Below are positions 1,586 through 54,769 of a stretch of 63,491 nt of DNA, one piece after another (the stretch's first letter is position 1; each line of letters opens with the position of its first letter). The translations under genes were made by a program, and so were the position numbers. Below the pieces are notes generated by a model. That model saw only the letters and a program-made list of their open reading frames with translations, made no database searches and had not been told where the DNA came from. Source of the DNA: Hydrogenimonas sp. (GTDB taxonomy: Bacteria; Campylobacterota; Campylobacteria; Campylobacterales; Hydrogenimonadaceae); contig NZ_JAOZPV010000003.1 in the NCBI RefSeq assembly GCF_029932565.1, positions 1 through 63,491 of the forward strand. The letters are read 5' to 3'.

Positions 1586-1604
1586 GTGTTTCCTTTGATT
1601 GATG

Positions 1605-3308
1605 TTATAGGCTGCAGGCTGTTGCGACCCTGTATTCCGACACTTTTCTCCCTTTCGTATCGACAATGTGAACGGCACACGCCAGGCACGGGTCGAACGA
1701 ATGCACGACTCGCAAGACTTCCAGAGGTTTCGTCGGATCGGCAAGATGTATACCTATCAGCGACTCTTCGTACGGGCCTCTGATCCCTTTCGCATCTTTG
1801 GGCGACGCATTCCATGTCGTCGGCACGACGGCCTGGTAGTTACACACTCTGCTCTCTTCGATTTTCACGAAGTGCGCCAGAACACCTCGCGGCACTTCAT
1901 GGATACCCCGCCCCTGCGCCGATTTTGGGAGTGTCTCAAACTCATATTTCGTCCAGGTCTCCTCATCGTAGTATTTGATGTTTTCGATCAGATCGCTGCA
2001 GAAGTCGAAAATGGTTTCACAGCAGATTTTCGCTTCGACAGCACGGGCGGCATTTCGGCCGATCGTGGAAGAGAAATCGATAAGTTCCATACCCGTCTCT
2101 TCCATGAAAGCCTCCACCGCAGGCTTGATGATAGTCGAATCTTTCAGATAACCGATGATCATACGTGCAGCGGGGCCCACTTCCATCGGTTCATTCTTGT
2201 AGCGTGGGGCCTTGACCCAGCTGTATTTTCCTTCCGTTTTGAGCGATCCGTCGTCGTTAAGGTCGGTATAGAACGGTACCGTCGATTCGTCGTAGGGCGA
2301 TGTCGGTCCATTCTCTTCATACCATGAACGTGACGCTTCTTCCGTGATATGATCGTCGTCGAAGGATTCGATATGTTCGAAATCGTGTCGATAAATGACA
2401 CCATTTTCAAACAGTACCGTACCGCTTGCGAGTCGGTATCCGCCGGCCGCCATGAAATTGCCGCTGCCGCGTCCGACTCCCTCTTTCATCTCCTGGTTGT
2501 ACGCTTCGACGAGCAGTTGCATATCGGGGATATAGGCGCGCTCGATGAAATCACGTGTATCCTTCATGATGAACATGTAGTCGTTCAACCGCTGGGGGTT
2601 GAGCATATCGGCCACACTGGTGACACCTCCGACGACCAGATTTTGCGGATGGGGTGTTTTGCCTGCGAAAATGGCGACCGCTTTGCTCAAAACCCTCTGG
2701 ACACGCAGCGCTTCGAAATAGTGGTTTATGAGAACGAGATTCTCCTCCGGAGTCAACCGGTAGGCGTCGTGTCCCCAGTATCCATTGGCGAAAAGCCCCA
2801 GCCGTCCCGCCTTGACAAAAGATGCAAGTTTCTCTTTCAATGACGAAAAATGACCGACCGACGATCGATAGGGATAGGAGTGATAGCGTTTCGCGACCTC
2901 CTCCGCTTTGGCGACATCCGCTTCGAGTGCACTGACGATATCGACATAGTCGAGTGAATGAAGATGGTAGAAATGGATGATGTGATCCTGCACGAAAAGT
3001 GAGAGCGTGACAAGATTGCGTATGATTTCGGCATTGGGCGGCGGTACGATGCCGTAGGCATCTTCAACCGCCGCAATCGATGCACGATAATGGACATTGG
3101 TGCAGACACCGCAGATACGCTGGGCAATCAGCCCCACATCTCTCGGGTCGCGTCCTTTCAGAATCACTTCGATGCCGCGGAAAAGCTGTCCCGATGCCCA
3201 GGCCTCCCTGACTACGTTTTCCTCGTCGATTTCGATTTCGATACGCAAGTGTCCCTCGATGCGGGTGATCGGATCGATCACGATTTTTTTGAGACGTCCG
3301 TTACTCAT
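1605..3308 (-). CDS. [NiFe]-hydrogenase large subunit, group 1-like (567 aa)
   Basis: DPITRIEGH, L1 QRICGVC, HFYHLH, KYSWVKAPRY, EVPRG, L2 DPCLACAVH followed by a cleavable C-terminal extension; start MSNGRL overlaps the upstream stop. Confidence 0.95.
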   Translation of the reverse strand: MSNGRLKKIVIDPITRIEGHLRIEIEIDEENVVREAWASGQLFRGIEVILKGRDPRDVGLIAQRICGVCTNVHYRASIAAVEDAYGIVPPPNAEIIRNLVTLSLFVQDHIIHFYHLHSLDYVDIVSALEADVAKAEEVAKRYHSYPYRSSVGHFSSLKEKLASFVKAGRLGLFANGYWGHDAYRLTPEENLVLINHYFEALRVQRVLSKAVAIFAGKTPHPQNLVVGGVTSVADMLNPQRLNDYMFIMKDTRDFIERAYIPDMQLLVEAYNQEMKEGVGRGSGNFMAAGGYRLASGTVLFENGVIYRHDFEHIESFDDDHITEEASRSWYEENGPTSPYDESTVPFYTDLNDDGSLKTEGKYSWVKAPRYKNEPMEVGPAARMIIGYLKDSTIIKPAVEAFMEETGMELIDFSSTIGRNAARAVEAKICCETIFDFCSDLIENIKYYDEETWTKYEFETLPKSAQGRGIHEVPRGVLAHFVKIEESRVCNYQAVVPTTWNASPKDAKGIRGPYEESLIGIHLADPTKPLEVLRVVHSFDPCLACAVHIVDTKGRKVSEYRVATACSL

Positions 3309-40876: not shown

Positions 40877-41719
40877 TTAATCGAGGGATTTGAAAAGTTC
40901 TGCCGTATCGAGACCGTAGAAGGTTTTAAACTCATCGTAAAGGTCGGGAAAGTGCTCTTTCAGCCCTCTCGGATTCTGGAAAAAGAGTTCGGTGACGACG
41001 GCGAAAAATTCGGCTTCATTGGTTGCGGCATACGCACCGATAAAACGGTACGCTTCCAAATCGCTGCGCCTTCTGCTTTTTTCCCTGAGCTCTTTGTAGC
41101 GCCGATAGAGAACCTGCGTCCATTTGTGGTATTGTGAACGCTCCACGGGCGGCACACCGTCTGGAGCACCGTTTTCGAAATCGAGCACATGTGCGAATTC
41201 ATGCAAAATGAGATTGTGCTGATGGATATGGAATGCTTCTCCTTTTGCCTCATTCCATGTGACGACAACGGTATCTCCCGCCGACAGCCCCTCCAGTATC
41301 AGTTCCTCTTCCCTGAATATTCCGTCCTCGGCCTCGATCCGTTTCACCACCACGTCATAGGGATAGACCAGAATCGTAAAAAGCTCGCCGTAGCACTCAT
41401 CGGGTATATTCACGACCATCAGGCAGGCATAGAAAGAGATGACGGCCTTCATCTCGTCGGTCACTTCGATTCCCACCCCTTTGAACTCTTTCGAGCGGGC
41501 AAAAAACAGCAGCCTCGGACGAATTTTTTCCTTCAACTCTTCCGGCAGCAACCTGTAGGGGGGAATCTTCTCCAGGGCCTCCCTGTAACTTTGCGGCAGC
41601 GGCATCGACCGGACCTTTTTCCAAAGCCACATGTTTCTGAAATAGGTCATCGCCTGCCATATCATTACCACGGCAAGCACCGCGAGCAGCAACTGTGTCA
41701 ACACCAGGTAGTAGGTCAT
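40877..41719 (-). CDS. MtfA-like (M90) zinc peptidase with N-terminal TM helix
   Basis: ILVYP, N..LHEFAH.LD, YAATN.AEFFAV.TE.FF. Confidence 0.88.
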   Translation of the reverse strand: MTYYLVLTQLLLAVLAVVMIWQAMTYFRNMWLWKKVRSMPLPQSYREALEKIPPYRLLPEELKEKIRPRLLFFARSKEFKGVGIEVTDEMKAVISFYACLMVVNIPDECYGELFTILVYPYDVVVKRIEAEDGIFREEELILEGLSAGDTVVVTWNEAKGEAFHIHQHNLILHEFAHVLDFENGAPDGVPPVERSQYHKWTQVLYRRYKELREKSRRRSDLEAYRFIGAYAATNEAEFFAVVTELFFQNPRGLKEHFPDLYDEFKTFYGLDTAELFKSLD

Positions 41720-42807
41720 CGCCGGTCTGCCAGAAACGCTTTGACCGCTTCCTCATTGCCACGAAACATAATCCGGTCGAACCGTTTTTCGATCTGATAG
41801 TCATACATCGGATCATAATACTCTTTCAGGAGATAGGCGATCCAGATCTTATGACTCTCCGTCTCCCCGCTTTTTTGCTGCGTGCCATAGGCCTTCGCTA
41901 TCATCTGTCGCACCCGCATATGGCGCTCCCCACCAAGACGTCTGCGTATCCTGTCGACCGCGAGCAGCATATCTTCGAACCACTTTTCCATCGGATTGTC
42001 GAAACCCGCCTCTGCATACAGATTCTGTGCCTGAAGAACATACTCCTCAAACGTTATCTCGACCCGCTCTTCCAATGGCGTTTCCAGAATGACAAGCGGC
42101 GCCTCGGCCAGAGAGCCGCTCAAACGGTCGGGCAGATAGAGACGTCCGACATTTTTCCCCTCGTCTTCAAAGATCAGGTGACGGTAATGCCCGCGGCTCT
42201 TTTCGATCAGTTCGTACGCCAATGCATTCTCGAACGCGATCTGGGTCGGTTGCGGGGAGATTTTTCTGCCAAACGACGATCCCCGGTGGTTGGCGAGATG
42301 CTCCAGGTCGACGCTGTTGTCCAATGTATGCAGAAGCAGCGTTTTGCCCGAACCCGTCCGGCCGCCCAAAACGATGGGCTCAAACCGTTCGACAGATCGA
42401 TCCGATTCGTCGATGAGAAACCGCCGGAAGGCTTTGTAGCCTCCTTCGATGCGAACCACCTCGCAGCCCGCCTCGTAGATCCAACGCTGGGCGATCTGCG
42501 ACCGCTGGCCTCCCCGAAAACAGTAGAGCAGCGCCTCGGAATGTTTTTTCAAAAAATCGCACCACATCCGTACCCGATCCTCTTTGACCTCACCGCTAAC
42601 CAGTTCGTGACCCAGGGCCACCGCCGCTTCGTTGCCCTCCTCTTTGTACGTTATCCCCACCAGGTGACGCTCCCGGTCGCTCATCAGAGGAAGATTTACG
42701 GCACCGGGGAAGGCCCCTTTGGCAAACTCCATGGGGGCACGTACATCGATCAGAGGCCGTCGTTCCAGGACGATGGAGAGGTAGTTGTCACAAAGAGGCA
42801 GATCCAC
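41716..42807 (-). CDS. selU: tRNA 2-selenouridine synthase
   Basis: Rhodanese DVRAP.EF, YCFRGGQRS, GGYK, P-loop GRTGSGKT, ANHRGSSFG, EDEG, YYDPMY; GTG start just after the selD stop. Confidence 0.93.
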   Translation of the reverse strand: MDLPLCDNYLSIVLERRPLIDVRAPMEFAKGAFPGAVNLPLMSDRERHLVGITYKEEGNEAAVALGHELVSGEVKEDRVRMWCDFLKKHSEALLYCFRGGQRSQIAQRWIYEAGCEVVRIEGGYKAFRRFLIDESDRSVERFEPIVLGGRTGSGKTLLLHTLDNSVDLEHLANHRGSSFGRKISPQPTQIAFENALAYELIEKSRGHYRHLIFEDEGKNVGRLYLPDRLSGSLAEAPLVILETPLEERVEITFEEYVLQAQNLYAEAGFDNPMEKWFEDMLLAVDRIRRRLGGERHMRVRQMIAKAYGTQQKSGETESHKIWIAYLLKEYYDPMYDYQIEKRFDRIMFRGNEEAVKAFLADRR

Positions 42808-42808
42808 C

Positions 42809-43843
42809 CTATACCACCTCGATGGTGTGTTCGCCCGCTTCGTGGGTTTCTCCGATAGGCTCAAGCTCCAGGCCATGGCGCTCTGCAATCTCGTTGAAGG
42901 CTTCGACACCGGATTTGTCTACTACGACAAGCAGGCCGCCCGAGGTCTGGGCATCACAGAGGATCTCGCGCTCTCGCAGACTCATGTCGGAGATTTTGTG
43001 CCCATAGCTCTTGAAGTTTTTCCGCGCACCTCCGGGGATGCACCCCAGCTCTCTGTACTTTTCCACATTGGGCAGCAGTGGCACCTTCTCGAACCATATC
43101 GTCGCACCGATGCCGCTTCCTTCGCAGATTTCACTCAAGTGTCCCAGTAGACCGAAGCCTGTGACATCGGTCATGGCACTGACGCACTCCAGTTTCGCGA
43201 AATCGCTGCCAGCCTTGTTGAGCGTGGTCATCGCCTCGATGGCGGGGAGGATCTCGTCACCCTCGATCTTTTTCTGTTTCTGAGCTGTCGACAAAATACC
43301 GATGCCGAGAGGTTTGGTTAAAAAAATGTAGCTCTCTTTTCTGGCCGTGTCGTTTCGCATCAGAAACCGGTTCTCCACAATCCCGGTCGCCGCCAGTCCA
43401 AAAATAGGCTCAGGCGAATCGATGGAGTGTCCGCCGGCAAGGGGAATACCGGCCTCCTCACATACGGAGCGTCCGCCTTCGATCACCTCCCTGGCAACAT
43501 CCGCCGAAAGTTTGTCGACCGGCCAGCCGAAAATCGATATGGCCATAAGCGGTCTTCCTCCCATCGCGTAGATATCGCTCAATGCGTTCGTGCCGGCAAT
43601 TTTGCCGAAAAGAAAAGGATCGTCGACGATCGGCATGAAAAAATCGGTTGTCGAAAGCACCGACATGCCGTTTCCAAGATCGTATGCCGCAGCATCGTCT
43701 CTGCTGTCGTTTCCAACCAGCAGCTGCGGATATGCGCGAACCGGCTCCACACCTGCCAGAATCTCTTCGAGCAGCATCGGCGAAATTTTGCAGCCGCATC
43801 CGGCCCCGTGGCTATATTCGGTCAGTTTCACTTTTTCGGACAT
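42809..43843 (-). CDS. selD: Selenide, water dikinase (Cys form)
   Basis: HGAGCGCK, DDAA, TTDFF.PIVDDP, AGGHSI, TDVTGFGL.GH, DAQTSGGLL. Confidence 0.96.
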   Translation of the reverse strand: MSEKVKLTEYSHGAGCGCKISPMLLEEILAGVEPVRAYPQLLVGNDSRDDAAAYDLGNGMSVLSTTDFFMPIVDDPFLFGKIAGTNALSDIYAMGGRPLMAISIFGWPVDKLSADVAREVIEGGRSVCEEAGIPLAGGHSIDSPEPIFGLAATGIVENRFLMRNDTARKESYIFLTKPLGIGILSTAQKQKKIEGDEILPAIEAMTTLNKAGSDFAKLECVSAMTDVTGFGLLGHLSEICEGSGIGATIWFEKVPLLPNVEKYRELGCIPGGARKNFKSYGHKISDMSLREREILCDAQTSGGLLVVVDKSGVEAFNEIAERHGLELEPIGETHEAGEHTIEVV

Positions 43844-43896: not shown

Positions 43897-44364
43897 GTGG
43901 TTATCGATATCCCCTCTCACAAAACGCTTGACATCCGCCATATCGTCTGTGACTACAACGGCACGATAGCAAAAGACGGCAAACTCCTCGAAGAGGTTCC
44001 CGAACTGTTTCACAAACTTTCCGAACGCTACACGGTCCATGTCGTAACGGCCGACACGTTCGGAAGCGTCGAAAAGGAGCTCGAAGGGACCGATGCCAAC
44101 ATCAAAATCCTGACAACGACAAACCATACGAAAGAAAAAGAGGATTTTGTCCAACTGCTTGGAGCCGACCGGTGTGCCGCTGTCGGCAACGGCAGCAACG
44201 ATGCAGATATGCTGAAAAGTTCGGCGATCGGAATATCGATAGTGGGAGGCGAGGGGTGCAGCACACGCGCACTGATGAACAGCGATCTTGCGTGCAATAC
44301 AGTTCGGGATGCTCTGGAACTCTTTCTCTATCCAAAACGTCTCATCGCCTCGCTGAGGCGATGA
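43897..44364 (+). CDS. HAD-family hydrolase (soluble P-type ATPase-like)
   Basis: CDYNGT.A.DG, TADTFG, VGNG.ND..ML, PKRLIASLR; GTG start with GGGAG RBS. Confidence 0.85.
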   Translation: MVIDIPSHKTLDIRHIVCDYNGTIAKDGKLLEEVPELFHKLSERYTVHVVTADTFGSVEKELEGTDANIKILTTTNHTKEKEDFVQLLGADRCAAVGNGSNDADMLKSSAIGISIVGGEGCSTRALMNSDLACNTVRDALELFLYPKRLIASLRR

Positions 44365-44374
44365 GAACGGCCCA

Positions 44375-45739
44375 TTATGCGAGCAGGTCGTTGATGACCG
44401 GATTGCCGTGTGTCAGAATTTCAGGGTTTTTGATTCCGTACATTTTATAAATGGTCGCGGCAATACTGAACGCCTGGAAAGTATAGGAACCGTTTTTCGG
44501 CCTTGTATAGATACGTGCATTGCTTCCTGTCACTTCCGTTTCGCCAACGATACCCAGATGGTTCATATAATCACGTCCCCCGAACCAGTAGACATTCTGA
44601 TTGTTGCCGTGATCCCATCCGAGTGAGTTGTTGTAATTGACATTTCGGCCAAATTCGCCGAAAACAACGATGTTGATATTGCTTTTTCCCGCCGCCTGCA
44701 TATGAGCCAGCGCCGCTTCGATCGCTTCCATCAGTTGTGTCATACGTCGGGTATAACGGTCGATGGCGTTGGAGTGGTCATCCCACCCACCGAGACCCGG
44801 ACTGCCCATACTGACGACTTTCGTATGTTCGTTGAAGATCAGCAGATTCATCGCTGTTTTCAGACGGCTCGCAAATACATTGTTTTCCGGATAGGTGACA
44901 CCCGCCGGCAAAGCGATATTGTTGATATCGTTCGCAAACTGCTCAAGCGTCACACGCCGCTCGAACGCTTCCCTGATTTTTCCCGTCGGATTGTATTTCT
45001 GCGCCATCGTATCAAGATAGTTCGCCACCGTCTGATTCGTCTCCTTGTTCAGAACACGTGATTCGCTGCAGGACATGGACCGTTTGTAGGGGTTGTCCGA
45101 ACCACTGCCGAAGGCGACGGGTTTGAGAAAGGCATTCAGATTCAGATCATCTTCATAGAAAAACGTCGATTCGCCCTCCATCGTGACAAAAGGAATACTT
45201 TTTCCAATATCGTCCGTCCCGGAAGGTTCATCCACCATACCCTTGTGGTAGAGAATCGAAGCGAGATTGGCAACGACACCCGCTCCCCCCTCGGTATCTT
45301 TCCCGCGCTGCGCCTGGGATGTACACTCGCCATGGGCCTTGAGATTGTCGACCGTGCGGTAGCATGTCCTGAAAATGTTCATATCGCCGGATGCGAGCAT
45401 CCGTTCCATTGCATCACCACCGGCATTTCCCCAAAACTTGTTTGTGGTAATACGCATGTAGTTGTCGTTACCGAGTGGATAGGGATTTTGACTCTTTTCG
45501 CTGATCTCCTCGATGTTGGTCAAATTGCCTGCCAATTCGGACGGTCCGCCATAGAGGTAGACAATGATTGTCTGGGCATTGTTGTTTTCGTAGACGTTTG
45601 GATCAAACTGGATGCTGCTGTAATCAAGATCGGCACTTTTCAACGAGAGTGGCATGATCGAGGAAAGACCCAGGGCACCCAGCCCTTTCAGAAAATGTCT
45701 CCGGTTAAAGTGTGTTTCGTTCAAACTGTTTTGTTTCAT
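44375..45739 (-). CDS. DUF1501-family protein with Tat signal
   Basis: NRRHFLK twin-arginine leader; YLYGG, GGWDDH, GEFGR, GWDHG motifs. Confidence 0.85.
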   Translation of the reverse strand: MKQNSLNETHFNRRHFLKGLGALGLSSIMPLSLKSADLDYSSIQFDPNVYENNNAQTIIVYLYGGPSELAGNLTNIEEISEKSQNPYPLGNDNYMRITTNKFWGNAGGDAMERMLASGDMNIFRTCYRTVDNLKAHGECTSQAQRGKDTEGGAGVVANLASILYHKGMVDEPSGTDDIGKSIPFVTMEGESTFFYEDDLNLNAFLKPVAFGSGSDNPYKRSMSCSESRVLNKETNQTVANYLDTMAQKYNPTGKIREAFERRVTLEQFANDINNIALPAGVTYPENNVFASRLKTAMNLLIFNEHTKVVSMGSPGLGGWDDHSNAIDRYTRRMTQLMEAIEAALAHMQAAGKSNINIVVFGEFGRNVNYNNSLGWDHGNNQNVYWFGGRDYMNHLGIVGETEVTGSNARIYTRPKNGSYTFQAFSIAATIYKMYGIKNPEILTHGNPVINDLLA

Positions 45740-45748
45740 CATAACTCC

Positions 45749-47920
45749 CTATTTCACTGCTTCAAACTCATAAATAGTGCTGAGCCTGGAAAGATAACTC
45801 AGGACAACCTGTGAAAAGTATCCTCGCTCTTTGAGATCGTCGACCTCCTTGCTGTTGCCGTAGATATCGAGCCAGCTGTTATTGTCGAATCGGTTGTCGT
45901 CGTCTTTGCTGTTGTCGATCAGGTCCACAAGAAACTCCAGCTCTTCGCTGTTGGCTTCACGCCCTGCAATCGGAACGAACAGGTGATTTACAATATATTC
46001 CGCACGAAGACGTTCGTTGGCATTCCATTCGTCCCGATCGATGATCTTTCTGCTGTTCAGATCAAACTCCGTCGCGCTGAAAAGCGACTGCGGCATATTT
46101 TCGAACAGCTCTTTCAACGGCCAACCATCGTCGCTGCTTTCAAACGAAAGGTCCTTTGTATAGTTGATCATGATATTGTCCCGAATCGTTTTATGGAACC
46201 ACGCAAACGACTGGGAGTCGAGAGGCACCTCCACTTTTCGCCCCAGCTTGTAGCGCATTGTCGATTGGTGCATTTTGTCGAGGTTTTTCGCGATATAGTA
46301 GAAAGAGTTCTTTTTCGGAACCCAGTGAAGCGTCTTGGCAATCTGGAAGAACGCCTCTTCGAACGATTTCGTTTTGTTCGAATTGAGCAGATACGCTTTC
46401 GAATAGACGATCTGTTTCAGCAATCCGGTCCATGTCGCCGGACGGCTCGAAATGATCTGATTCACGACGCTCTGTTTCTGTGATTCCGTATAGTTCGGAA
46501 AATAGATATCGACAAGTCGTCGTGTAACGGTTGGCACAAAACTTGGCTGAAGTACGAGTGTGCTGTAGAAATCGGTTCCGTTTCGGATCACGCGACCGGG
46601 AAAGAGATCGGTGATCGGCTCGACATTTTCGTCGAGTGTAACAACCAGTGTATTGGATCGGCGGTCGAGTTTCCAGTTCTGCAGAGCTTTTCCGGCAAGC
46701 GGGACGTGTGCATCTTCAAAATCCATGTTGTATATTTCGAGCATTTCACGGCCATTGTCTTCCGGACTTCTGAAGCGCCGCCAGTTCTCATCTGTCATCA
46801 TATGGGTAAAGGTGACCCACTGCAGGCTGAATCCCTCATCGAAATCGCGTACGAGATCGCCATAGACATCGATCGCATCGACGGTATAGACCGTATCCAG
46901 TTCGTATGCCGGCGAAAAGAGAATGGTCTGGCTCAACACATAGGCAGCCCAACGATTGAGGTAGGCACGGCCCGGCTCGAGGAAATAGATGCGTCCAAGC
47001 ATTTTCGCAACGAGCTTGTGATCACCCCAGCCACCACTGTAATCATAGAGTTTCTCTTCGATTGCGGCAATGTCGGATTTGCTGTTGTCACGATCGAAAA
47101 GTGCCCGTGTTTCCGAAATGAATCGGCCGGAATTGACCGCTTCCGTAAATTGCTCATAGTCGGCACCGTAGAAAAAAGTACCATAGAGTTTCAACGCAAC
47201 TTCATATTTTTCATCTTGTGAAAGGGCATTGAACTCTGAATCCGTAAGCGGGGCGAGACCGTATTGATCGTAATCGAGCTCTTCTCCCATCACCGGAATA
47301 TTGTACAGGACGGGACCCGATGCATACTGGTTGAACGCATTTTCGTCGGTCAACCGGATATCGTGTCCCTTTCCGATATCGATATATTTCGCATAGGTTT
47401 CCTGCAGATGCGCCTCCGCCTCCGCATAGGAAACGGGTGTAATCTCAAGGGAAGGAAGTTTGTCTTTGATATCGGCTATTACCTCTTCAAGATCGTCTTC
47501 GTTGTCCGGCACATCTACGATACCGTTTTGATTGAGTACATCGACAACCTCCTGCTTGATTTCGATTCCGTTCGAAGGATCACCGTCGGCATCGCACGAC
47601 TGCAGCAGTGCCGCGACTTTCGGATTGCTCTCGATGATGACGGCACCCTCGGCCAACTCTGTGGCTTTGAGAGTCCGAAGGGCGATGTTTCCGAGCTTGA
47701 ACGAACACTCTTTTCCGACTTCGAAATGGAAGGCTCCTTCACTGTCCGTCGTTCCACTCAGCCCGCCACATCGATACGTGACTCCGCTGACTGCGGCATC
47801 GATATAATACGCCTTTCCGCTGGCGGTGGTGGATGAAGAGCCACCACCTCCGCAACCTATCATGAAAACCCCGGCCATGGCGATCATGGCATGCTGTATT
47901 GAGAAAATATGTCTACTCAT
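45749..47920 (-). CDS. Large lipoprotein with a divergent DUF1800-like C-terminal region
   Basis: Lipobox MIG-C then GGGGSSS linker; DADGDPSNG; PEDNGREMLEIY resembles the DUF1800 P.ENYARE..ELF motif; directly upstream of DUF1501. Confidence 0.7.
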   Translation of the reverse strand: MSRHIFSIQHAMIAMAGVFMIGCGGGGSSSTTASGKAYYIDAAVSGVTYRCGGLSGTTDSEGAFHFEVGKECSFKLGNIALRTLKATELAEGAVIIESNPKVAALLQSCDADGDPSNGIEIKQEVVDVLNQNGIVDVPDNEDDLEEVIADIKDKLPSLEITPVSYAEAEAHLQETYAKYIDIGKGHDIRLTDENAFNQYASGPVLYNIPVMGEELDYDQYGLAPLTDSEFNALSQDEKYEVALKLYGTFFYGADYEQFTEAVNSGRFISETRALFDRDNSKSDIAAIEEKLYDYSGGWGDHKLVAKMLGRIYFLEPGRAYLNRWAAYVLSQTILFSPAYELDTVYTVDAIDVYGDLVRDFDEGFSLQWVTFTHMMTDENWRRFRSPEDNGREMLEIYNMDFEDAHVPLAGKALQNWKLDRRSNTLVVTLDENVEPITDLFPGRVIRNGTDFYSTLVLQPSFVPTVTRRLVDIYFPNYTESQKQSVVNQIISSRPATWTGLLKQIVYSKAYLLNSNKTKSFEEAFFQIAKTLHWVPKKNSFYYIAKNLDKMHQSTMRYKLGRKVEVPLDSQSFAWFHKTIRDNIMINYTKDLSFESSDDGWPLKELFENMPQSLFSATEFDLNSRKIIDRDEWNANERLRAEYIVNHLFVPIAGREANSEELEFLVDLIDNSKDDDNRFDNNSWLDIYGNSKEVDDLKERGYFSQVVLSYLSRLSTIYEFEAVK

Positions 47921-48137
47921 ATTTCTTCCTTTATTTGATGAATCGCACGCGTACCCGACTACACATTGAGAATAAATAGATCTCATGTGTACTCAGGTAT
48001 TGAACAATCCTATTATATAACCAAGCAAAACGTTTTTGTTCCGCTATTCACAGTGATTAACCAGGTGTTAATGAAGAGGGAGAGAAAAGACATTGAAAGG
48101 TTACAAGGGAGTAACATACTCTTACCTTTATGGCGGT

Positions 48138-48229
48138 AAAGAGGCAACCTGGCGATCTTCCAAACAGATTTTCGAAGACCCATGGCTTTCCGTCCCTGCT
48201 TCACAACAGGTTTGGCAACTGAACTCCCA
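48138..48229 (-). ncRNA. c-di-GMP-I (GEMM) riboswitch aptamer
   Basis: Minus strand GGGAG..GCCAAACCUGUU-GUGA-AGCAGGGACGGAAAGCCAUGGGUCUUC...GAAGAUCGCCAGGUUGCCUCUU: P2 with GNRA loop, GACG.AAAGCC junction, P3, GGUUGCC. Confidence 0.9.
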
Positions 48230-48295
48230 ATTCTAACTTAAGGAGACTTAATTGTTTTTAAGTAATAAAAATTAGCCTGTTTACATTTATTTATA

Positions 48296-49852
48296 TTACT
48301 CCTCCAGTTCCCCCACAATCTCGGCCATCCATGCTTTGTCGATTTTGTGCCGGGCGCCACGATAGATATTTTCTTCGAGTTTCTTGAGAGCCATCTCTAT
48401 CTCTCTGTCCTCTTTGGCATAGGGGAGAAGAAGATTGAACAGCTCTTTGTCGCTCCTTGCCCGACGAATCTCTCTGACGATATCGATCTCCTTTTTACGA
48501 CCCATCCGTTTCTTCAGATATCCAAAGCCATACACAATACCTCCCCCCAGCACCATACCAAGAATCAGCAATCCGATAGACGCCCAGGTTGGAACCATAC
48601 CCGTTGACGACACGGATTCCTCGGTGGCGTTGTGACTCGCCGTCGATTCGCTTTTTTCGATTCCATTGCTCTTTTGAATCTTTTCGGCCTCTTTCGTGCC
48701 GGCTTTTACCCCGCCAACAACATGGATGAAAATAGGAGCTGTCCTCTTTTCGACGACCTTCTGTTCCCGCTTGTCGAAATAGCGCAGAACGAATGACGGT
48801 ACCATGAAGTCCCGGTCCGCCACGACCGTGATATTCTGCTTGAACGTACCGCCGTATACACCGTTTTTCAGCCACTCCTTGACGATGGGTTCGTCGGCGT
48901 AGACGACCGCGCCCGAAATCTCTGGTTCGAACTTTTTGATATCTTCGATATTCCCTTCCCCCTCTACACTGACAGTGATACGCACCGGCTTGTTCACTTC
49001 GACATCCGTCCGGTCGGCCTCGGCACGTATTGTAAACGTGCCATAGAGCTCGACCCCGCCCGGAAGCGGATCGACATCGATCGTGACGCTGTTGGAGGCA
49101 ATACGGGTCCATTGAAGTCTCGCAAAAAACCCGTTAAAGAAATCGTCGTCGAAAAAGGGATCGTTGATGGGCGGTTTTACCCGGACACGTTTGGCGATTT
49201 TCGCTGTAAGAGGTCCCAGTTTGTAGCTGCCGGGTTTCTGGGGAAATATGAGATAGCGATGTTTTTCGACAATATACCCGTTCTCATGCAGACGCTCCAC
49301 ATCGCCAACCTTTTTGATCCAGAAATTGGCAAACTCCGGTTTCTGCAGATCGATCTGGGCAAAATTGCTCCCCTCTTTGTATCGCATCGAGAGGATCATT
49401 TCCACCGGTTCGCCCACGACCACGTGTCGTTTGTCCACCTCGATGCCGAGCTTCGCTTCGCCATTCTGCCCACCGGAAGGTTTGGGTGCACCGGTCACGC
49501 GGACTTCCAGCGGATCGGTTTTCAGCTCATCACCATCGACTTTTACGGTCAGTGCAGGAATTGTCACGCTGCGCATCGGTGCGAATGTGTAGCTTTTGGT
49601 GAAACTCTTGTCGATATGGCCGTTGACGATGGAGATGCTGGACCGCTGGGACGTCCCAAGTACCGGGAATCCACCGATCTCTTTGACAACCGGGAACTCC
49701 ACATCCTGACCCTGGGCGGTGATCGAGAAGGTCACGGTATCACCAGATACCACCTCTTTTTTGTCGACACTGACGGAGACGCCGCCCGCGAAAAGCTGCA
49801 GCATTGCCGTCAGAAGTATCGCCACAATCATGTTACCAGGGAGTCGTCTCAT
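48296..49852 (-). CDS. batD: BatD-family protein
   Basis: Signal peptide, repeated Ig-like segments, SISIVNG, C-terminal TM helix; last gene of the bat operon. Confidence 0.85.
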   Translation of the reverse strand: MRRLPGNMIVAILLTAMLQLFAGGVSVSVDKKEVVSGDTVTFSITAQGQDVEFPVVKEIGGFPVLGTSQRSSISIVNGHIDKSFTKSYTFAPMRSVTIPALTVKVDGDELKTDPLEVRVTGAPKPSGGQNGEAKLGIEVDKRHVVVGEPVEMILSMRYKEGSNFAQIDLQKPEFANFWIKKVGDVERLHENGYIVEKHRYLIFPQKPGSYKLGPLTAKIAKRVRVKPPINDPFFDDDFFNGFFARLQWTRIASNSVTIDVDPLPGGVELYGTFTIRAEADRTDVEVNKPVRITVSVEGEGNIEDIKKFEPEISGAVVYADEPIVKEWLKNGVYGGTFKQNITVVADRDFMVPSFVLRYFDKREQKVVEKRTAPIFIHVVGGVKAGTKEAEKIQKSNGIEKSESTASHNATEESVSSTGMVPTWASIGLLILGMVLGGGIVYGFGYLKKRMGRKKEIDIVREIRRARSDKELFNLLLPYAKEDREIEMALKKLEENIYRGARHKIDKAWMAEIVGELEE

Positions 49853-50654
49853 CCTCACTCCTTTCTCCCTTTTTCGTCGGCACAGGCAGCATCAGCGTAT
49901 GAATATCCCGCCGGTTCAGCACCTTCTCCCATTTTCTCAGCTCCATGTCGCTTATCGGTTCGTTTTTTTGCATCGCCTGTCGCATCGCTTCCATCTCTTT
50001 TTTGTCGCTCGATTCTCTCTTTTTCTTCTCTCTCTTTCGCTGTCCATCTTCCGCTTTTTGTTTCTCACCGTCCCTCTCTCTCTTTTGACGCTCTTTTTGG
50101 CCCGCATGGTCCCGATCGTTCTGCTGACTCTTGCTTTGCCCTTTCTGACGGCTTTGCTGATCCTGCTGATCCTCTTGATTCTGCTGATTTTGTTGGTTCT
50201 TTCCGCTCCTGTTCTGGTCTTGCTCTTTCTGCTGCTTCTGCTCTTTCTTCTTCTTTTTTATCGTTTTGAGCAGTTCCAGATTGAAACGGGTATCGGCATC
50301 CTCTTTGATCTTCAGAGCCTCTTCGTAAGCCATGATCCCTTCGTCCAGATTGCCGAGTCTGGCATAGGTATTGCCGAGATTGTGCCATTTTTGAAACTGC
50401 AGTTCGGGTTTTTGTACCGATTTGAAGAGCTCCAGGGCTCTGGAATAGTCACCCGCTTTGTACCAGGCATCACCCGCATCGAGTTTCGCTTCGTCGGCAC
50501 CTGTCGCCTTCACGGCCTCTTCATAGAGTTTCGCCGATTTTTCGAATGCTTTGGCCTCGTAGGCATCCCGCGCCTTCTTGAGCGTCCAGAAATCGAGCAT
50601 ACCCCCCTGCAATGTCATCGTCGTGAGAAGTGAGAGAAACATCCACGATCTCAT
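49833..50654 (-). CDS. TPR protein, BatC-like
   Basis: TPR (HNLGNTY, YEEAL, RFNLEL) followed by a Q/K/E-rich low-complexity tail. Confidence 0.82.
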   Translation of the reverse strand: MRSWMFLSLLTTMTLQGGMLDFWTLKKARDAYEAKAFEKSAKLYEEAVKATGADEAKLDAGDAWYKAGDYSRALELFKSVQKPELQFQKWHNLGNTYARLGNLDEGIMAYEEALKIKEDADTRFNLELLKTIKKKKKEQKQQKEQDQNRSGKNQQNQQNQEDQQDQQSRQKGQSKSQQNDRDHAGQKERQKRERDGEKQKAEDGQRKREKKKRESSDKKEMEAMRQAMQKNEPISDMELRKWEKVLNRRDIHTLMLPVPTKKGERSEDETTPW

Positions 50655-51637
50655 CCCCTCTCCTTTCCTCTCACTGTACGTTCACGCCGGGGGAGCGACG
50701 TGCCCGAGAGCAGAAAGAGGAGTGTCGCCGCAGCCAACGGATAGTAAAAAAGCTCTTCGCGGTCGTGTATGACGCTCTCTTTGCTCTCTTCGGGTGTCAG
50801 ACGGCGGCGTATCTCTTCGGCCAGGCGCGCCATATCCCCTTTGCCGAGTGAAAAGCGCATGTAAACACCTCCCGTCTTCTCGGCCAGTGCCGCCACAGCA
50901 GGGTTGAGACGGGTGACGACCACATTCCCGTTCCGGTCACGCACGACACCGCCGTCCAGTTTCATGACACCCCCCTTTTCGGTTGCAACGGCGTAAACGA
51001 AAACCCTGATACCGCGGCTTTTGGCATAGGCAATCTCCTCGGAAAAATTCTTTTTGTCGCCGCCATCGGTCAAGAGCAGCAACGCCTTCTCTTTTTTCTC
51101 TTTGAGCAGATTCTCGGTCACCTCCAGCGGCGCCATCATGTCGGTTCCTTTGAGGGTGACGTAGTCGAATCCCATCTGCTTCACCAGATATTTCAGCGAC
51201 GCGTAGTCACGTGTCATGGGGGCGATCAGAAAAGCGCGGGAACTGAAACCGATGACACCCACCCTCGTCTGCTTCAGGTCGTCCAGAAGATCGAAAAATT
51301 TCCGTTTCGCCAGTTCAAAGCGGTTCGGATAGATATCATTCGCGAACATGGATCGGGAGATGTCGAATGCGACCACCAGATCGACATTCTGTTCCCTGAC
51401 CTTTATCTCACCGCGGTCGATGACAGGCCGCGCCAGCGCCACAATACCCAGTGCCATCGCCAGCAGCAGAAGCGCACGCCGCGTCCGTCGGCTCACTCCT
51501 CCGCCGGATGTGACCATCTTTTTGTAGAGATCCGGTGCAAATTTCCTGCGCAAGGCATCGCCTCCTTTGGAAGTAAGCAGCCAGAGTGCCGGCAAAAGAA
51601 GCAAAAGAAGCAACGCTTCGGGATGGAGCAGAGTCAT
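50651..51637 (-). CDS. VWA-domain protein, BatB-like
   Basis: ALARP, MIDAS DISRSM, P.T.D, LTDG. Confidence 0.87.
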   Translation of the reverse strand: MTLLHPEALLLLLLLPALWLLTSKGGDALRRKFAPDLYKKMVTSGGGVSRRTRRALLLLAMALGIVALARPVIDRGEIKVREQNVDLVVAFDISRSMFANDIYPNRFELAKRKFFDLLDDLKQTRVGVIGFSSRAFLIAPMTRDYASLKYLVKQMGFDYVTLKGTDMMAPLEVTENLLKEKKEKALLLLTDGGDKKNFSEEIAYAKSRGIRVFVYAVATEKGGVMKLDGGVVRDRNGNVVVTRLNPAVAALAEKTGGVYMRFSLGKGDMARLAEEIRRRLTPEESKESVIHDREELFYYPLAAATLLFLLSGTSLPRRERTVRGKERG

Positions 51638-52542
51638 GCCGCACCTACCCGCCGGCGGCGTGCCGTACCTTCGAAAGCCAACAGAAGCATCAGCGCCAGC
51701 GCCCCCGACAGAGGCCAGGCGAAGTAGTAGCTCTTCCTGATATACCTGTTCCCTTTGATTTCGCTTTTTTCCAGCCGGTCAATGGTTTGGTACACCTCCT
51801 TGAGCTTCTGCACCGAATCAGCCTCGTAAAATTTGCCATCTGTCTCCTCGGCCATCTTTTTCAGCACATAGGGATTGTAATCGCCCGGTTGCCCCACACC
51901 GATCGTGTAGACCCTGATACCGTACTTTTTCGCGGTATTGATTGCCACCTCCAGAGGCACCGTGCCGGCATTGTCGACACCGTCGGTGAGCAAAATGGCG
52001 ATTTTGTGCCTGGCATGAGAGTGTTTGAACAGCTTCGTACTCATAAAAAGTGCCTCGTAGAGTGCCGTACGACGCGTACCTGCGATCCCCACTTCGATTC
52101 TGTCCAGCAGTCGAAGCAGCGAGTGTTTGTCGTAGGTCAGCGGTACCGCCACGTAGGCGAAATCGGCAAAGATCGTCAGACCGATTTTGTCATGTTTGCG
52201 CTCCTTCACGAACTGGGTCACAATCTCTTTGACGATGTCGAACTTTCCACTCTGCGCCATCGAACCACTCGCATCGAGGATCAGAGATATCTCATACCCC
52301 CTGTCGTGCTGAACCATTGTCTCATTTTCCACCACCGGACTGGCCAACGCCGTCACAAGCAGAGCAAACGCCAGAAATTTCAGCAGTATGGTTGCCGATT
52401 GTCTGCCTCTGCCTATCCGGGCCATCCGGTCGCTGCCCGGAAACCAGATGCTCTCGAATCGCGGTTTGCACCACCTGGCACAAAGAAAGAAAAGGAGCAA
52501 TAGTCCGAAGACCGAAGGATTTTCGAAAACGATCTCACCCAT
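51634..52542 (-). CDS. VWA-domain protein, BatA-like
   Basis: ALASP, DASGSM, PLT.D, LLTDG, YTIGVG. Confidence 0.87.
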   Translation of the reverse strand: MGEIVFENPSVFGLLLLFFLCARWCKPRFESIWFPGSDRMARIGRGRQSATILLKFLAFALLVTALASPVVENETMVQHDRGYEISLILDASGSMAQSGKFDIVKEIVTQFVKERKHDKIGLTIFADFAYVAVPLTYDKHSLLRLLDRIEVGIAGTRRTALYEALFMSTKLFKHSHARHKIAILLTDGVDNAGTVPLEVAINTAKKYGIRVYTIGVGQPGDYNPYVLKKMAEETDGKFYEADSVQKLKEVYQTIDRLEKSEIKGNRYIRKSYYFAWPLSGALALMLLLAFEGTARRRRVGAA

Positions 52543-52945
52543 ACCGCATAGCCTTTTCGATCAGGGTCTGCATCGCCCTCTTTTCGTCACGACCGAGTTT
52601 CGGGACCTCTTTTTTGTATTTGTAACGTTCAAGTTTCGGCTGCAGCGCATCGAATGCGTCGATCAGCTCTTTTCTGTCACCGATGAGCACCGGCAGATAT
52701 TCGTCGAATGTATAGACCGCCTTTTTCGTATCGGAAAAATCGATGGCTCGAAGCATCTCTTTCGCGATACTTTCCGGATCTTTATGTCGGCGTCGGCGTC
52801 GAACGGGCCCTCTTTTCCAAAGATAGAGAAGAGCCGACAGGATAAGCAGTAACAGCAGGAGAAGAGCCAGCAGCTGCCACAGTGAATCGTCGGGTACATC
52901 CACCGGCGGTTTGATATCGCGCAGCTGCTGGAGCATCTCCTTCAC
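52535..52945 (-). CDS. Hypothetical membrane-anchored protein (DUF4381-like)
   Basis: LRDIKPP N-terminal motif, TM helix, basic patch; typical position in moxR-bat operons. Confidence 0.7.
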   Translation of the reverse strand: MKEMLQQLRDIKPPVDVPDDSLWQLLALLLLLLLILSALLYLWKRGPVRRRRRHKDPESIAKEMLRAIDFSDTKKAVYTFDEYLPVLIGDRKELIDAFDALQPKLERYKYKKEVPKLGRDEKRAMQTLIEKAMRYG

Positions 52946-53769
52946 TTCAAAAGCTCCCGTAGTTTGACGAACGGCTCTTCGTCCGTATAGATTTTCGTAT
53001 AACCGATACGATGCTTCAAAAAGTGTTCTCCTATTTTTCTGTCATGGGCGAGCAAATCGTTCCGGTACGCCGATACAAGGCTCCCGTCCATATCGATACG
53101 GTGATGCCTGCCGCTGACGGGATCGACGAGGTCATATTCGCCCGCCATTTCCGGGTTCTCTTCGAAACGGTCGCGCACGACAATGGCATAGACTTCATGT
53201 TTCGCACTGAGGAGAGCCAGGTCGATCTCATCATAGAAATCACCCAGCAACAGTACGATGGAACGCTCCTTCAGGGTATGCAGAAGGAAGTCGGCGAATT
53301 TCTGCATATCCCCTTTGCGTCCCAGCACATCCAGACTCAGCGCGTAGTCGAGCGCGGCATAGACGATGTTGGGGCTCTTCGACGGTTTGAACCACTGGTC
53401 GACAGCGGTATCGAAAAAGATCGAGGTAACCCGGTCGGAATTTTTGAGTGCTGCAAACCCGAGCAGTGCCAAAATTTCCGCCAGCACCTCCTGTTTCTGC
53501 CGAACGGAACCGAAATAGATACTTCCCGAAACAGAAAATCCGATGACGATATTGAGCTCCCGCTCTTCGTTGAAGACATTGAGATAGGGCTTCTGCTGTC
53601 GTGCCGTCACTTTCCAGTTGATTTTGCGGACATCTTCACCATATATGTACTCCTTCAGCTCAGCAAAATCGATCCCGTTGCCCTGGAATGTCGAAATGTT
53701 GTTACCGATATTCTGACCAAACAGACGTCGCCTGGTTTTGATAAGTAGTTCTTTCGCTTTGCTGTTCAT
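52942..53769 (-). CDS. DUF58-domain protein
   Basis: G.G.DFAE.KEY.YGEDVR.INWKVTAR, F.EERE. Confidence 0.9.
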   Translation of the reverse strand: MNSKAKELLIKTRRRLFGQNIGNNISTFQGNGIDFAELKEYIYGEDVRKINWKVTARQQKPYLNVFNEERELNIVIGFSVSGSIYFGSVRQKQEVLAEILALLGFAALKNSDRVTSIFFDTAVDQWFKPSKSPNIVYAALDYALSLDVLGRKGDMQKFADFLLHTLKERSIVLLLGDFYDEIDLALLSAKHEVYAIVVRDRFEENPEMAGEYDLVDPVSGRHHRIDMDGSLVSAYRNDLLAHDRKIGEHFLKHRIGYTKIYTDEEPFVKLRELLK

Positions 53770-53789
53770 ATCAGATTTCCATATTCCGG

Positions 53790-53817
53790 TTCACGATTCA
53801 CGCTTTACGATCCCCGC
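53790..53817 (+). repeat. Degenerate 7-bp tandem repeat between moxR and DUF58
   Basis: ttcacga ttcacgc tttacga tccccgc. Confidence 0.55.
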
Positions 53818-53821
53818 CTTT

Positions 53822-54769
53822 TTACGGTACTCTCACGGCTTTCTGAATCGATTTGACAATATCGTCACTCGTAAGACCGGCCGCTTCGGCTTTGTAGTTG
53901 AGTATGATCCGGTGTCGCAGCACATCGTGCAATACATCGGCGATATCGACCGGCGTGACGTAATCCTTTCCCCGTATCAGTGCGACGGCTCGACTCGCCT
54001 TGTAGAGGTCGATGGAGGCGCGGGGACTCGCTCCGAATTCGATATACTCCGCCATATCAGAAAGACCATACTCCTTCGGATAACGCGACGCGAAAATGAG
54101 TTTAAGCATATATTTTTGGACGGCATCGTCGACATGGATGTCGTGAAGCGCCTTTTGCATCGCGGCGATTTCCGGCTTTCCGGCCACCGGCGCTATCTCG
54201 CCAAACCCTTTCGCCGCGACCCGGCTGACAATCTCGAACTCCTCTTCGATCGAATTGTAGCCGATATTCACCTTCATCATGAAGCGGTCGAGCTGCGCTT
54301 CGGGCAGACGGTAGGTTCCCTCCTGCTCGACGGGATTCTGTGTCGCGAGTACCAGAAACGGACGGTCGACTTTGTAGGTATCCTCGGCGATCGTCACCTG
54401 CTTCTCCTGCATCACCTCGAGCAAAGCGGACTGAACTTTCGCCGGAGCACGGTTGATCTCGTCCGCTAGAAGGAGGTTTGTAAAAACCGGGCCGTGTTTG
54501 ACCTTGAATTCACCGCTTTTCTGGTCGTAAATCTCCGTACCCGTAATGTCGCTGGGCAGCAGGTCAGGCGTAAACTGCACCCGTTTGAATCCCAGTCCCA
54601 ATGCCTGGGCCAGTGCATTGATCGCCGTCGTTTTCGCCAGCCCCGGCACCCCTTCGACAAGCAGATGTCCTTCGCACAGCAGTGCAATCAGCATCGCATC
54701 GACGAGATGCTCATGTCCGACAATGACTTTGCCAACCTCTTTCTTGATCGATTCAATCGCTTGGTTCAT
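53822..54769 (-). CDS. moxR: MoxR-family AAA+ ATPase
   Basis: GVPGLAKT, RVQFTPDLLPSD, DEINRA, ATQNP.EQEGTY.LPEAQLDRF, GASPR. Confidence 0.95.
   Translation of the reverse strand: MNQAIESIKKEVGKVIVGHEHLVDAMLIALLCEGHLLVEGVPGLAKTTAINALAQALGLGFKRVQFTPDLLPSDITGTEIYDQKSGEFKVKHGPVFTNLLLADEINRAPAKVQSALLEVMQEKQVTIAEDTYKVDRPFLVLATQNPVEQEGTYRLPEAQLDRFMMKVNIGYNSIEEEFEIVSRVAAKGFGEIAPVAGKPEIAAMQKALHDIHVDDAVQKYMLKLIFASRYPKEYGLSDMAEYIEFGASPRASIDLYKASRAVALIRGKDYVTPVDIADVLHDVLRHRIILNYKAEAAGLTSDDIVKSIQKAVRVP

Follow-up and report, generated by a model that had tools for sequence, protein, structure and literature searches.

Riboswitches of the c-di-GMP-I class (the Vc2, Cd1 and Bc1 types) are built on a two-helix aptamer with a GNRA loop and the contact bases G20, A47 and C92, carried in a sense-strand 5' leader. 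The same architecture was found ahead of a two-gene envelope operon in Hydrogenimonas sp. (GCF_029932565.1, contig NZ_JAOZPV010000003.1, positions 1-63,491; this whole 63,491-nt stretch is referred to below as the window). The leader differs from the described switches in its C21-G46 aptamer subtype, in lacking an intrinsic terminator, in having a probable second promoter within it, and in a predicted strand exchange by a C/U tract with Rho or the ribosome-binding site as output. In the Vibrio cholerae Vc2/tfoY leader, too, additional promoters reportedly lie downstream of a c-di-GMP-I aptamer, so that the switch governs only a share of the expression; the gene controlled there codes for a regulator instead of an envelope pair.

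The operon itself resembles the canonical DUF1800 (PF08811)/DUF1501 (PF07394) pairs and the PSCyt2-PSD1/DUF1501 modules of Planctomycetes in gene order, tight coupling, the Tat signal of the DUF1501 protein, the variable passenger domains of the first protein and the predicted fold. It differs from them in the first protein, a lipoprotein with an additional module at its N-terminus and too divergent to be clearly recognized by Pfam or profiles. Such pairs are widespread, and we know of no function for them. No riboswitch was seen at the canonical loci, and the literature searched on DUF1501, DUF1800, Sulfurovum riboswitches and c-di-GMP, and Hydrogenimonas c-di-GMP contained no link between a riboswitch and the pair; Rfam or survey supplements may list such aptamers. 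The locus thus joins a known riboswitch class to a target without precedent in that literature, and the functional clue is real but indirect. Our explanation of the whole, to which we give an even chance, is that two transcripts are predicted and the aptamer likely switches the longer one OFF, and that the pair would be expressed most strongly at low c-di-GMP.

Table 1. Features of the riboswitch-led operon, in window coordinates
Feature	Position	Strand	Remarks
P1, predicted -10 box TAGAAT	48230..48235	minus	implied start near 48224, at the aptamer 5' edge
c-di-GMP-I (GEMM-I) riboswitch aptamer	48140..48226	minus	Rfam RF01051; GUGA tetraloop
Hairpin right after the aptamer	48119..48143	minus	uses the sequence immediately 3' of C92; not followed by a U-tract
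C/U-rich tract, predicted switching strand	48073..48094	minus	in duplex with the aptamer if no ligand is bound, unpaired while the aptamer is kept folded
Imperfect palindromic box	48047..48060	minus	lies 29 nt ahead of the P2 -10; similar to the motif of NssR (Crp/Fnr family)
P2, predicted -10 box TATAAT, internal promoter	48012..48017	minus	downstream of aptamer and tract
Two-gene operon, lipoprotein then DUF1501	47920-44375	minus	aptamer at its head
723-aa lipoprotein	45749..47920	minus	signal peptide with Cys23 (lipobox by eye)
455-aa DUF1501 protein	44375..45742	minus	Pfam PF07394; twin-arginine signal
Terminator-like hairpin ending the operon	44340..44366	minus	where the operon meets a convergent HAD hydrolase gene

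The Rfam covariance model RF01051 scored the aptamer at 61.5 bits (gathering score 35, E 1.3e-9); no other RNA match in the window reached gathering level. The lipoprotein ATG at 47920 lies 219 nt past the aptamer end. The original prediction had called a clear GEMM-I aptamer about 220 nt upstream on the same strand, with an Rfam search as its check, and this was confirmed. When 30 related aptamers were aligned, 98.2% of the cells paired and 12 of 20 pairs varied on both sides, compared to at most three in slid controls, so that the two-helix structure is conserved, with covariation, in these aptamers. Positions 20, 47 and 92 (Vc2 numbering) read G (48216), A (48189) and C (48144), as had been predicted, and G20 and A47 were found in all 44 parsed aptamers. 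The c-di-GMP-I-GGC variant RF03167 was considered and set aside, as its score of 56 bits fell below the cut-off of 59 and the window has A47 where the RF03167 consensus has G. Several related aptamers scored best with the RF03167 model, yet have A47.

With regard to the ligand, one study gives a G20/C92 rule for ligand choice, with A at position 20 in cGAMP-type aptamers, and reports that a G20 aptamer bound cGAMP only at 10 uM, compared to picomolar concentrations for c-di-GMP (PMC6140456). The c-AMP-GMP (GEMM-Ib) class, which requires that A, was rejected on the G at 48216. The genome contains 31 GGDEF matches; the specificity position is Asp in all 14 domains readable by pattern, none of the 14 being of the Ser/Thr type. 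By the base rule and by this Asp, the aptamer very likely recognizes c-di-GMP, which is the ligand originally favoured over 3',3'-cGAMP. A true preference for 3',3'-cGAMP, or a promiscuous aptamer, is very improbable: it could draw on the C21-G46 subtype, which we take to be that of the Geobacter cGAMP switches, and on three intact GGDEF domains that are unreadable at the specificity position, and it is opposed by the G20 of 44/44 aptamers and by the GGDEF residues read. In these aptamers the helix that closes around the ligand pocket seems weak, and the affinity for the ligand could therefore be lower.

The two downstream genes are separated by 6 nt. The second product matched the Pfam DUF1501 family with 42.5 bits (cut-off 27, E 6e-11); its Tat motif remained below the Pfam cut-off (19.7 vs 22.7 bits), and RR-x-F is nearly invariant across 93 homologues. 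Together with the signal peptide of the first product, this bears out the prediction of a Sec lipoprotein followed by a Tat-exported DUF1501 protein. Judged by its predicted model, the DUF1501 protein has the core fold of the alkaline phosphatase superfamily. The model aligned with PafA at Z 18.3 (rmsd 4.3, 280 residues) and with ENPP6 at Z 18.1; over the superfamily members compared (PafA, ENPP6/NPP, EptA/EptC, LtaS), Z was 16-18 for 240-280 aligned residues, at an identity of only 7-14%. A cluster of Asp/His residues is also shared with the superfamily, H137, D321, D322, H323, D377, H378 and an acidic residue at 363 being invariant in the homologues. The metal and nucleophile positions were assigned from superfamily motifs that we presume to apply; on this assignment the first-strand metal Asp is replaced by Gly, and the likely nucleophile, position 136, varies (Ser in 54 and Ala in 32 of the 93). 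Catalysis by the protein is hence not assured.

The first product was found to consist of a generic surface-lipoprotein module (residues about 28-190) and a helical domain (about 200-723), which the predicted structure suggests to be a divergent DUF1800-like domain. The latter superimposed on a DUF1800 cluster over 424 residues with TM 0.67 by query and 0.71 by target (feature score 0.93-0.94), both sides being predicted models, and on PSCyt2/PSD1 cluster models with TM 0.60-0.63. The lipoprotein had no Pfam or NCBIfam match, and none of 83 family members matched the PF08811 HMM at E 0.05 among the matches listed, which covered 25 of 28 families. The DUF1800 HMM scores of the family were no better than those of shuffles, and hhalign, run to test homology to verified DUF1800 proteins, reached E 0.02 against a 6-sequence alignment, with one motif in register; Pfam, hhalign and HMM comparisons thus gave no proof of membership. 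The earlier description of the lipoprotein as DUF1800-like stands as to predicted fold and as to position, directly upstream of DUF1501 in the window and at 29 of 30 loci of a sister family (f5; the 30th lies at a contig edge), and fails as a sequence-level match; it is DUF1800-like by predicted structure only. Foldseek returned no solved fold for this domain at E 0.001. Phycobilisome linkers were discarded as its fold (best VIA Z 5.0, within noise, with the model over the advised length), and kinship between the N-terminal module and Geobacter PgcA, through the non-heme domain of the latter, is only a lead (E 0.44 with Foldseek, no PDB sequence match).

The association of aptamer and pair was then followed through relatives. 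Within the genus an aptamer lies upstream of 18/31 homologous genes, which makes the pair the commonest target of the genus aptamers (18/28); in the sister family it was present at 11/30 loci. Each of the three deep clades of the protein family shows the link (quick IQ-TREE), and the aptamer stays with the pair amid many unrelated flanks and relocations. In six same-locus orthologues the aptamer has been lost while the pair persists, behind 97-184 nt of intergenic DNA with a TATAAT-like box in most of them. The proposed survey of other DUF1800/DUF1501 loci gave the aptamer within the genus and the sister family and not beyond them: no aptamer was seen at the 11 DUF1501 loci from other phyla, of which 9 could be assessed, only one of 80 pattern-matched loci from many phyla leads this domain, and a class-wide sample (5 carriers among 301 genomes) added little. 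The link is consequently lineage-specific, and as it is unseen outside Campylobacterota it cannot serve as a clue to these DUF families in general. We consider control of the pair in cis by the riboswitch to be likely.

The remaining 10 of the 28 genus aptamers precede different genes, mostly for lipoproteins, and the other aptamer-led genes code for Ig/cadherin-like, collagen-like or carbohydrate-binding surface proteins. This genome's second aptamer leads, as far as its contig extends, a lipoprotein that shares the N-terminal module alone. An aptamer travelling only with that module was rejected, since most homologues without the module are also aptamer-led. One reading of these data, which we place just short of even, is that the regulation is real and says little about the DUF role, the aptamer being a general control of surface lipoproteins of which the pair is one recruit; the other targets, the second aptamer and the scarcity in other phyla agree with it, while the rank of the pair among targets and the retention of the switch across deep clades speak against it. 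It is compatible with the OFF-switch explanation and only narrows its reach. The original suggestion that the pair is tied to the motile/sessile switch, and that this is a functional clue, accordingly holds for the conserved link and is weakened by its narrow lineage, the shared regulon, an internal promoter that looks real and a direction predicted to be OFF: the clue is to membership in a c-di-GMP surface-protein regulon, not to a specific function.

The direction of the switch was addressed by folding of the leaders; these come from relatives and are not independent samples, and all of the switching evidence is computed. No intrinsic terminator was called anywhere in the leader, and this type of expression platform was dropped. 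A C/U tract is conserved, lying in the window 46-67 nt downstream of the aptamer and in the genus 100-200 nt from the start codon; the sister-family leaders are short. The first aptamer helix was stable in 16/16 genus leaders when the aptamer alone had been made and collapsed in 15/16 after 80 more nt, compared to 19/87 grafted controls. With the aptamer held folded, the ribosome-binding site became harder to open by more than 0.5 kcal in 22/28 native leaders and easier to open in one, whereas two graft sets of 45 each showed a mean change of about zero; in the window the effect was small (+0.8 kcal). The C excess of the tract reached at least the 95th percentile of controls in 11/16 genus leaders. 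The aptamer-tract duplex was stronger than in dinucleotide-shuffled leaders in only 4/28, which indicates that the switching signal is mostly base composition and gives no support to a sequence-specific anti-aptamer helix. At 37 C the bound fold of the window leader is 9.1 kcal less stable than the free one, which requires a kinetic switch.

As the tract is predicted to be freed on ligand binding, the genes would be expressed most when c-di-GMP is scarce, and these models make an OFF direction at high c-di-GMP the probable one. An ON switch, in which binding lifts expression and the pair serves the sessile or biofilm state, seems unlikely. High c-di-GMP usually accompanies surface attachment, the other aptamer-led genes encode surface proteins of the kinds named above, and the post-aptamer hairpin, which judged by eye has counterparts in several of the related leaders, might serve as a non-canonical terminator. 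That hairpin is, however, present in both predicted states and without a U-tract, and only the single leader mentioned became more translatable with the aptamer held folded. For the OFF direction, Rho is a tentative output in the window leader: the genome encodes a Rho_N domain protein and folding exposes the C-rich tract in the bound model, where some 27 nt become single-stranded, which is short for a Rho site.

Two predicted promoters bear on how much expression the riboswitch governs. Upstream of the aptamer, a -10 box was found in only 10/16 genus leaders (about 6 expected), and three orthologous loci (L056, L043 and L062) have TATAAT 18 nt ahead of G20. Within the leader, the best-conserved promoter signal in the genus is P2: a box and a -10 at 28-30 nt spacing, scored with a literature motif, occur in 14/17 leaders compared to 5/87 controls. 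At least 7 of 10 positions of the NssR-like motif TTAAC-N4-GTTAA (PMC1274295) are matched in 14/17 leaders; the box starts about 55 nt before the predicted P2 start (near 48005 in the window), where reported Crp/Fnr sites in Nitrosophilus lie at 48-49 nt (PMC11539149). The pattern is missing from 12/12 short leaders outside the genus, which keep the aptamer and a tract near the start codon. The internal TATAAT, noted earlier one base off at 48013-48018, is probably a real second promoter. Transcription of the pair from it alone had been named as grounds for abandoning the prediction; the promoter looks real and coexists with an upstream -10, and riboswitch control is therefore probably partial.

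It is rather improbable that the pair is essentially transcribed from P2 only, with the P1 RNA a short stand-alone species whose stability or read-through responds to c-di-GMP and which acts by interference with P2 or elsewhere. The Vc2/tfoY leader is said to offer a precedent for such an RNA, and both the conservation of P2 and the aptamer-less orthologues with their TATAAT-like boxes agree with it; the short leaders that retain aptamer and tract without the P2 pattern, and the many relocations through which the aptamer follows the pair, do not.

Under the OFF-switch explanation, RNA would begin at the aptamer 5' edge from P1, the aptamer being the first to fold. In the ligand-free state the C/U tract is predicted to invade the first aptamer helix, and the genes would be expressed because the tract is hidden in the duplex. 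Binding of c-di-GMP is predicted to lock the aptamer and expose the tract, which in the genus would most likely load Rho and end transcription, and in the short sister-family leaders most likely pair with the ribosome-binding site. P2, beyond the tract and the palindromic box, would provide riboswitch-independent expression on a second input. The exported unit may then be a Tat-exported enzyme of the alkaline phosphatase superfamily held at the membrane by the lipoprotein, probably a metal-dependent phospho-ester/-diester hydrolase or transferase acting on cell-surface polymers; this enzyme role is plausible at a level somewhat below even.

The value of the finding is limited by a lineage-specific link and by a switch that probably acts on one of two transcripts only. 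Within these bounds, the conserved c-di-GMP switch indicates the condition in which to look at the pair, namely low versus high c-di-GMP, and the predicted DUF1501 fold indicates an assay class, phospho-ester/-diester chemistry at the cell surface. The leader also offers a small system in which to study how c-di-GMP riboswitches without intrinsic terminators work in Campylobacterota. A bolder and improbable scenario is that in a Campylobacterota order a Rho-loading c-di-GMP riboswitch and a second regulated promoter shut off a surface phosphodiester-remodelling complex when the cells are sessile, the pair being a dispersal or surface-release machine. If true, this would be the first physiological role for the orphan DUF1800/DUF1501 family.

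A search of the whole window with Rfam returned c-di-GMP-I as the sole RNA family at gathering level, on the strand of the lipoprotein/DUF1501 pair and ending 219 nt before the lipoprotein gene, as the original prediction had held. The ligand-contact positions were also as first read, G20, A47 and C92, and are of the c-di-GMP type by the rule given in a section of PMC6140456, according to which G20 and C92 recognize c-di-GMP and cGAMP switches are marked by A20. Under the G47 variant model the window aptamer scored below that model's cut-off. All 44 parsed aptamers had G20 and A47, and in an alignment of 30 of them 12 of 20 pairs varied on both sides. The 1.86 Mb genome contains 31 GGDEF matches (16 with an intact GG[DE]EF motif), and Asp occupies the GGDEF specificity position in 14/14 domains readable by the pattern used. 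There is nothing unusual about the window riboswitch within its well-known class.

Coordinates of the pair, its aptamer and related features
Feature	Location	Positions	Strand	Remarks
c-di-GMP-I aptamer	window	48140-48226	minus	Rfam, 61.5 bits
lipoprotein gene	window	47920-45749	minus	
N-terminal module of lipoprotein	window	47854-47350		
DUF1501 gene	window	45742-44375	minus	twin-arginine signal; begins 6 nt past lipoprotein gene
MoxR AAA/DUF58/VWA/TPR/BatD operon	window	48296-54769		upstream of aptamer
selD-like and rhodanese-domain (selenouridine synthase-like) genes	window	41716-43843		downstream of pair
second DUF1501 gene	G000:C80	about 1275-2560	+	canonical-looking
locus of second c-di-GMP-I aptamer of genome (L001)	G000:C33	5844-6647		before a lipoprotein
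tandem c-di-GMP-I aptamers (L034/L053)	G020:C1	966511-966743		before a lipoprotein
fused remnant of pair	L246	593-1279		Sulfurovum genome
box plus -10 pattern	G000:C124	8952	+	
box plus -10 pattern	G000:C24	15422	+	
box plus -10 pattern	G000:C23	15815	-	
box plus -10 pattern	G000:C1	48610	+	

A hairpin closes the operon behind the DUF1501 gene. No terminator was called between the MoxR/BatD operon and the aptamer, and read-through from the former is therefore possible. The contig carrying the genome's other DUF1501 gene has no aptamer.

Among the 22 genomes of the genus, which contain 28 aptamers, the main domain of the lipoprotein was matched 31 times, with a same-strand aptamer upstream in 18. 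Of the 13 matches without one, six form a group at the window's own locus, behind batD and with a short intergenic region; three are downstream copies within tandem arrays, three are truncated by contig ends, and one is a first tandem copy whose second copy carries the aptamer. In the sister family (homologues named Sulfurovum) the main domain was present in 32/151 genomes and the aptamer directly upstream at 11 of the 30 loci scanned, several aptamer-negative loci offering little upstream sequence. A check of 50 genomes from outside the phylum with a similar aptamer, 12 of them with DUF1501, omitted two planctomycete genomes (~30 copies each) and one weak match; the aptamer preceded the pair at none of 11 loci from other phyla, two of which had no upstream sequence. 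Since each of the three deep clades of a quick tree of 59 proteins includes the aptamer, and the cassette lies amid many unrelated flanks among the loci listed, the link is of long standing in part of one order; it was not found elsewhere among the loci checked. At four loci (L220, L251, L252, L247) the whole pair is tandemly duplicated, with the aptamer before one copy only, and the short fused remnant in a Sulfurovum genome suggests an internal deletion.

No intrinsic terminator was called in the leader. In most genus leaders the aptamer is followed, after a spacing that varies little, by a C/U-rich tract; in the window C exceeds G by 13 over 40 nt, a value beyond the 95th percentile for the genome's control leaders. 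When growing transcripts of 16 genus leaders, which are kin and so not independent samples, were folded stepwise, the first aptamer helix was stable at the aptamer's end in all 16 and lost by 80 nt beyond it in 15, compared to 19 of 87 controls with grafted unrelated sequence. In the predicted free fold of the window this helix and the tract are paired together, and in the predicted bound fold the tract is single-stranded. Bound ligand would in this way expose the C-rich tract to Rho, which is present in the genome, and turn the genes off; loading of Rho onto an exposed C-rich site is described in part of PMC10907184. Alternatively, the freed tract would pair with the ribosome-binding site, again turning the genes off. 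With the aptamer held folded, opening this site cost more in 22 of 28 leaders and less in one; in the two sets of 45 graft controls it cost more in 13 and 17 and less in 9 and 12, respectively. Counting against the switch, the effect in the window itself was only 0.8 kcal, and the aptamer-tract duplex was better than in shuffled leaders in only 4/28 cases. Rho loading or ribosome-site pairing would thus follow the same logic, with ligand bound and genes off.

In the window and three orthologues a -10 box stands 18-19 nt ahead of G20 (promoter P1), which would therefore place the aptamer at the 5' end of the transcript; genus-wide this signal is modest (10/16 leaders, with ~6 expected). The internal TATAAT (promoter P2) is better conserved, and 14/17 genus leaders have a palindromic box 28-30 nt 5' of its -10 hexamer, with a peak at 29 nt. 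Box plus -10, as a motif defined from these same leaders, was found in 14/17 against 0.25 expected from shuffles, and was missing from 12/12 short leaders outside the genus. Promoters of this phylum carry a periodic AT signal, and the palindromic box may be that signal. Using the NssR motif as given in an excerpt of PMC1274295, the combination was detected in 14/17 genus leaders and 5/87 control leaders. Four Crp-type HTH matches occur in the genome, but the box lies 6-7 nt farther upstream than the Nitrosophilus Crp/Fnr sites that served as distance reference (from the portion of PMC11539149 consulted). RNA from P2 would carry neither aptamer nor tract. Transcription from the internal TATAAT only had been named as the case against riboswitch control; as P2 probably exists but transcription probably starts at another promoter too, that objection holds by half. 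The pattern also occurs at four other sites in the genome, before what we take by eye to be lpxC and genes for a Tat-exported peptidase, a FadL-type outer-membrane protein and an exported cyclophilin, which may point to a regulon of envelope genes.

The lipoprotein, whose closest named homologues are from Hydrogenimonas, gave no match in Pfam or NCBIfam. It is a fusion protein: many of the 120 homologues listed, at ~550 aa, align with no more than its last 70%. Similar to its extra N-terminal module (about residues 28-190) are the N-terminal domains of unrelated lipoproteins that carry lipases, esterases or phytase-like domains. Foldseek matched the module weakly (E 0.44) with the non-heme domain of PgcA, a Geobacter lipoprotein under GEMM-riboswitch regulation. 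The main domain was modeled confidently (pLDDT 91) with no clear relative among solved structures; its predicted structure resembles DUF1800 clusters (TM 0.67/0.71) as well as the PSCyt2/PSD1 proteins that partner DUF1501, while sequence-profile comparison with DUF1800 did not reach significance. The DUF1800-like label initially proposed is thus retained at the level of predicted structure; the protein is not a Pfam DUF1800 member. In relatives (L231, L229, L230, P0034, P0058) the DUF1800-like domain is joined to varied passengers: DUF4214 repeats, PKD/Ig domains and beta-propellers.

The DUF1501 model (pLDDT 88) is of the alkaline-phosphatase-superfamily type, nearest to PafA and ENPP/NPP diesterases (Z 17-18). 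It has invariant Asp and His residues, but compared to that superfamily its first strand is unusual and the nucleophile is not fixed. According to a passage of PMC5122149, the DUF1800/DUF1501 pair is a conserved operon without known function that has been transferred together with bacterial chitin synthases; one of PMC3542564 presents DUF1501 as a Tat protein and links it to PSCyt/PSD1 proteins. Several pair cassettes adjoin genes resembling, by eye, surface-polysaccharide genes.

The remaining aptamers of these genomes are mostly ahead of surface or secreted proteins. L001, the second aptamer of the window's genome, shares the tract and box plus -10 layout and precedes a lipoprotein with the window protein's N-terminal module (49% identity); because the contig ends inside this gene, L001 may be an unassembled second pair. 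The lipoprotein behind the tandem aptamers L034/L053 combines a related N-terminal module with carboxypeptidase-regulatory-like repeats. A single genome, G054, has seven c-di-GMP-I aptamers, of which the three examined (L035, L052, L061) lead multiheme cytochrome, collagen-like and F5/8 carbohydrate-binding domain lipoproteins.

The riboswitch class is already known; no report of its conserved tie to the divergent DUF1800-like/DUF1501 pair was found in the literature, searched mainly by listings. Most likely, c-di-GMP partly represses a predicted exported phospho-ester enzyme unit, which would belong to a surface-protein regulon specific to this lineage.
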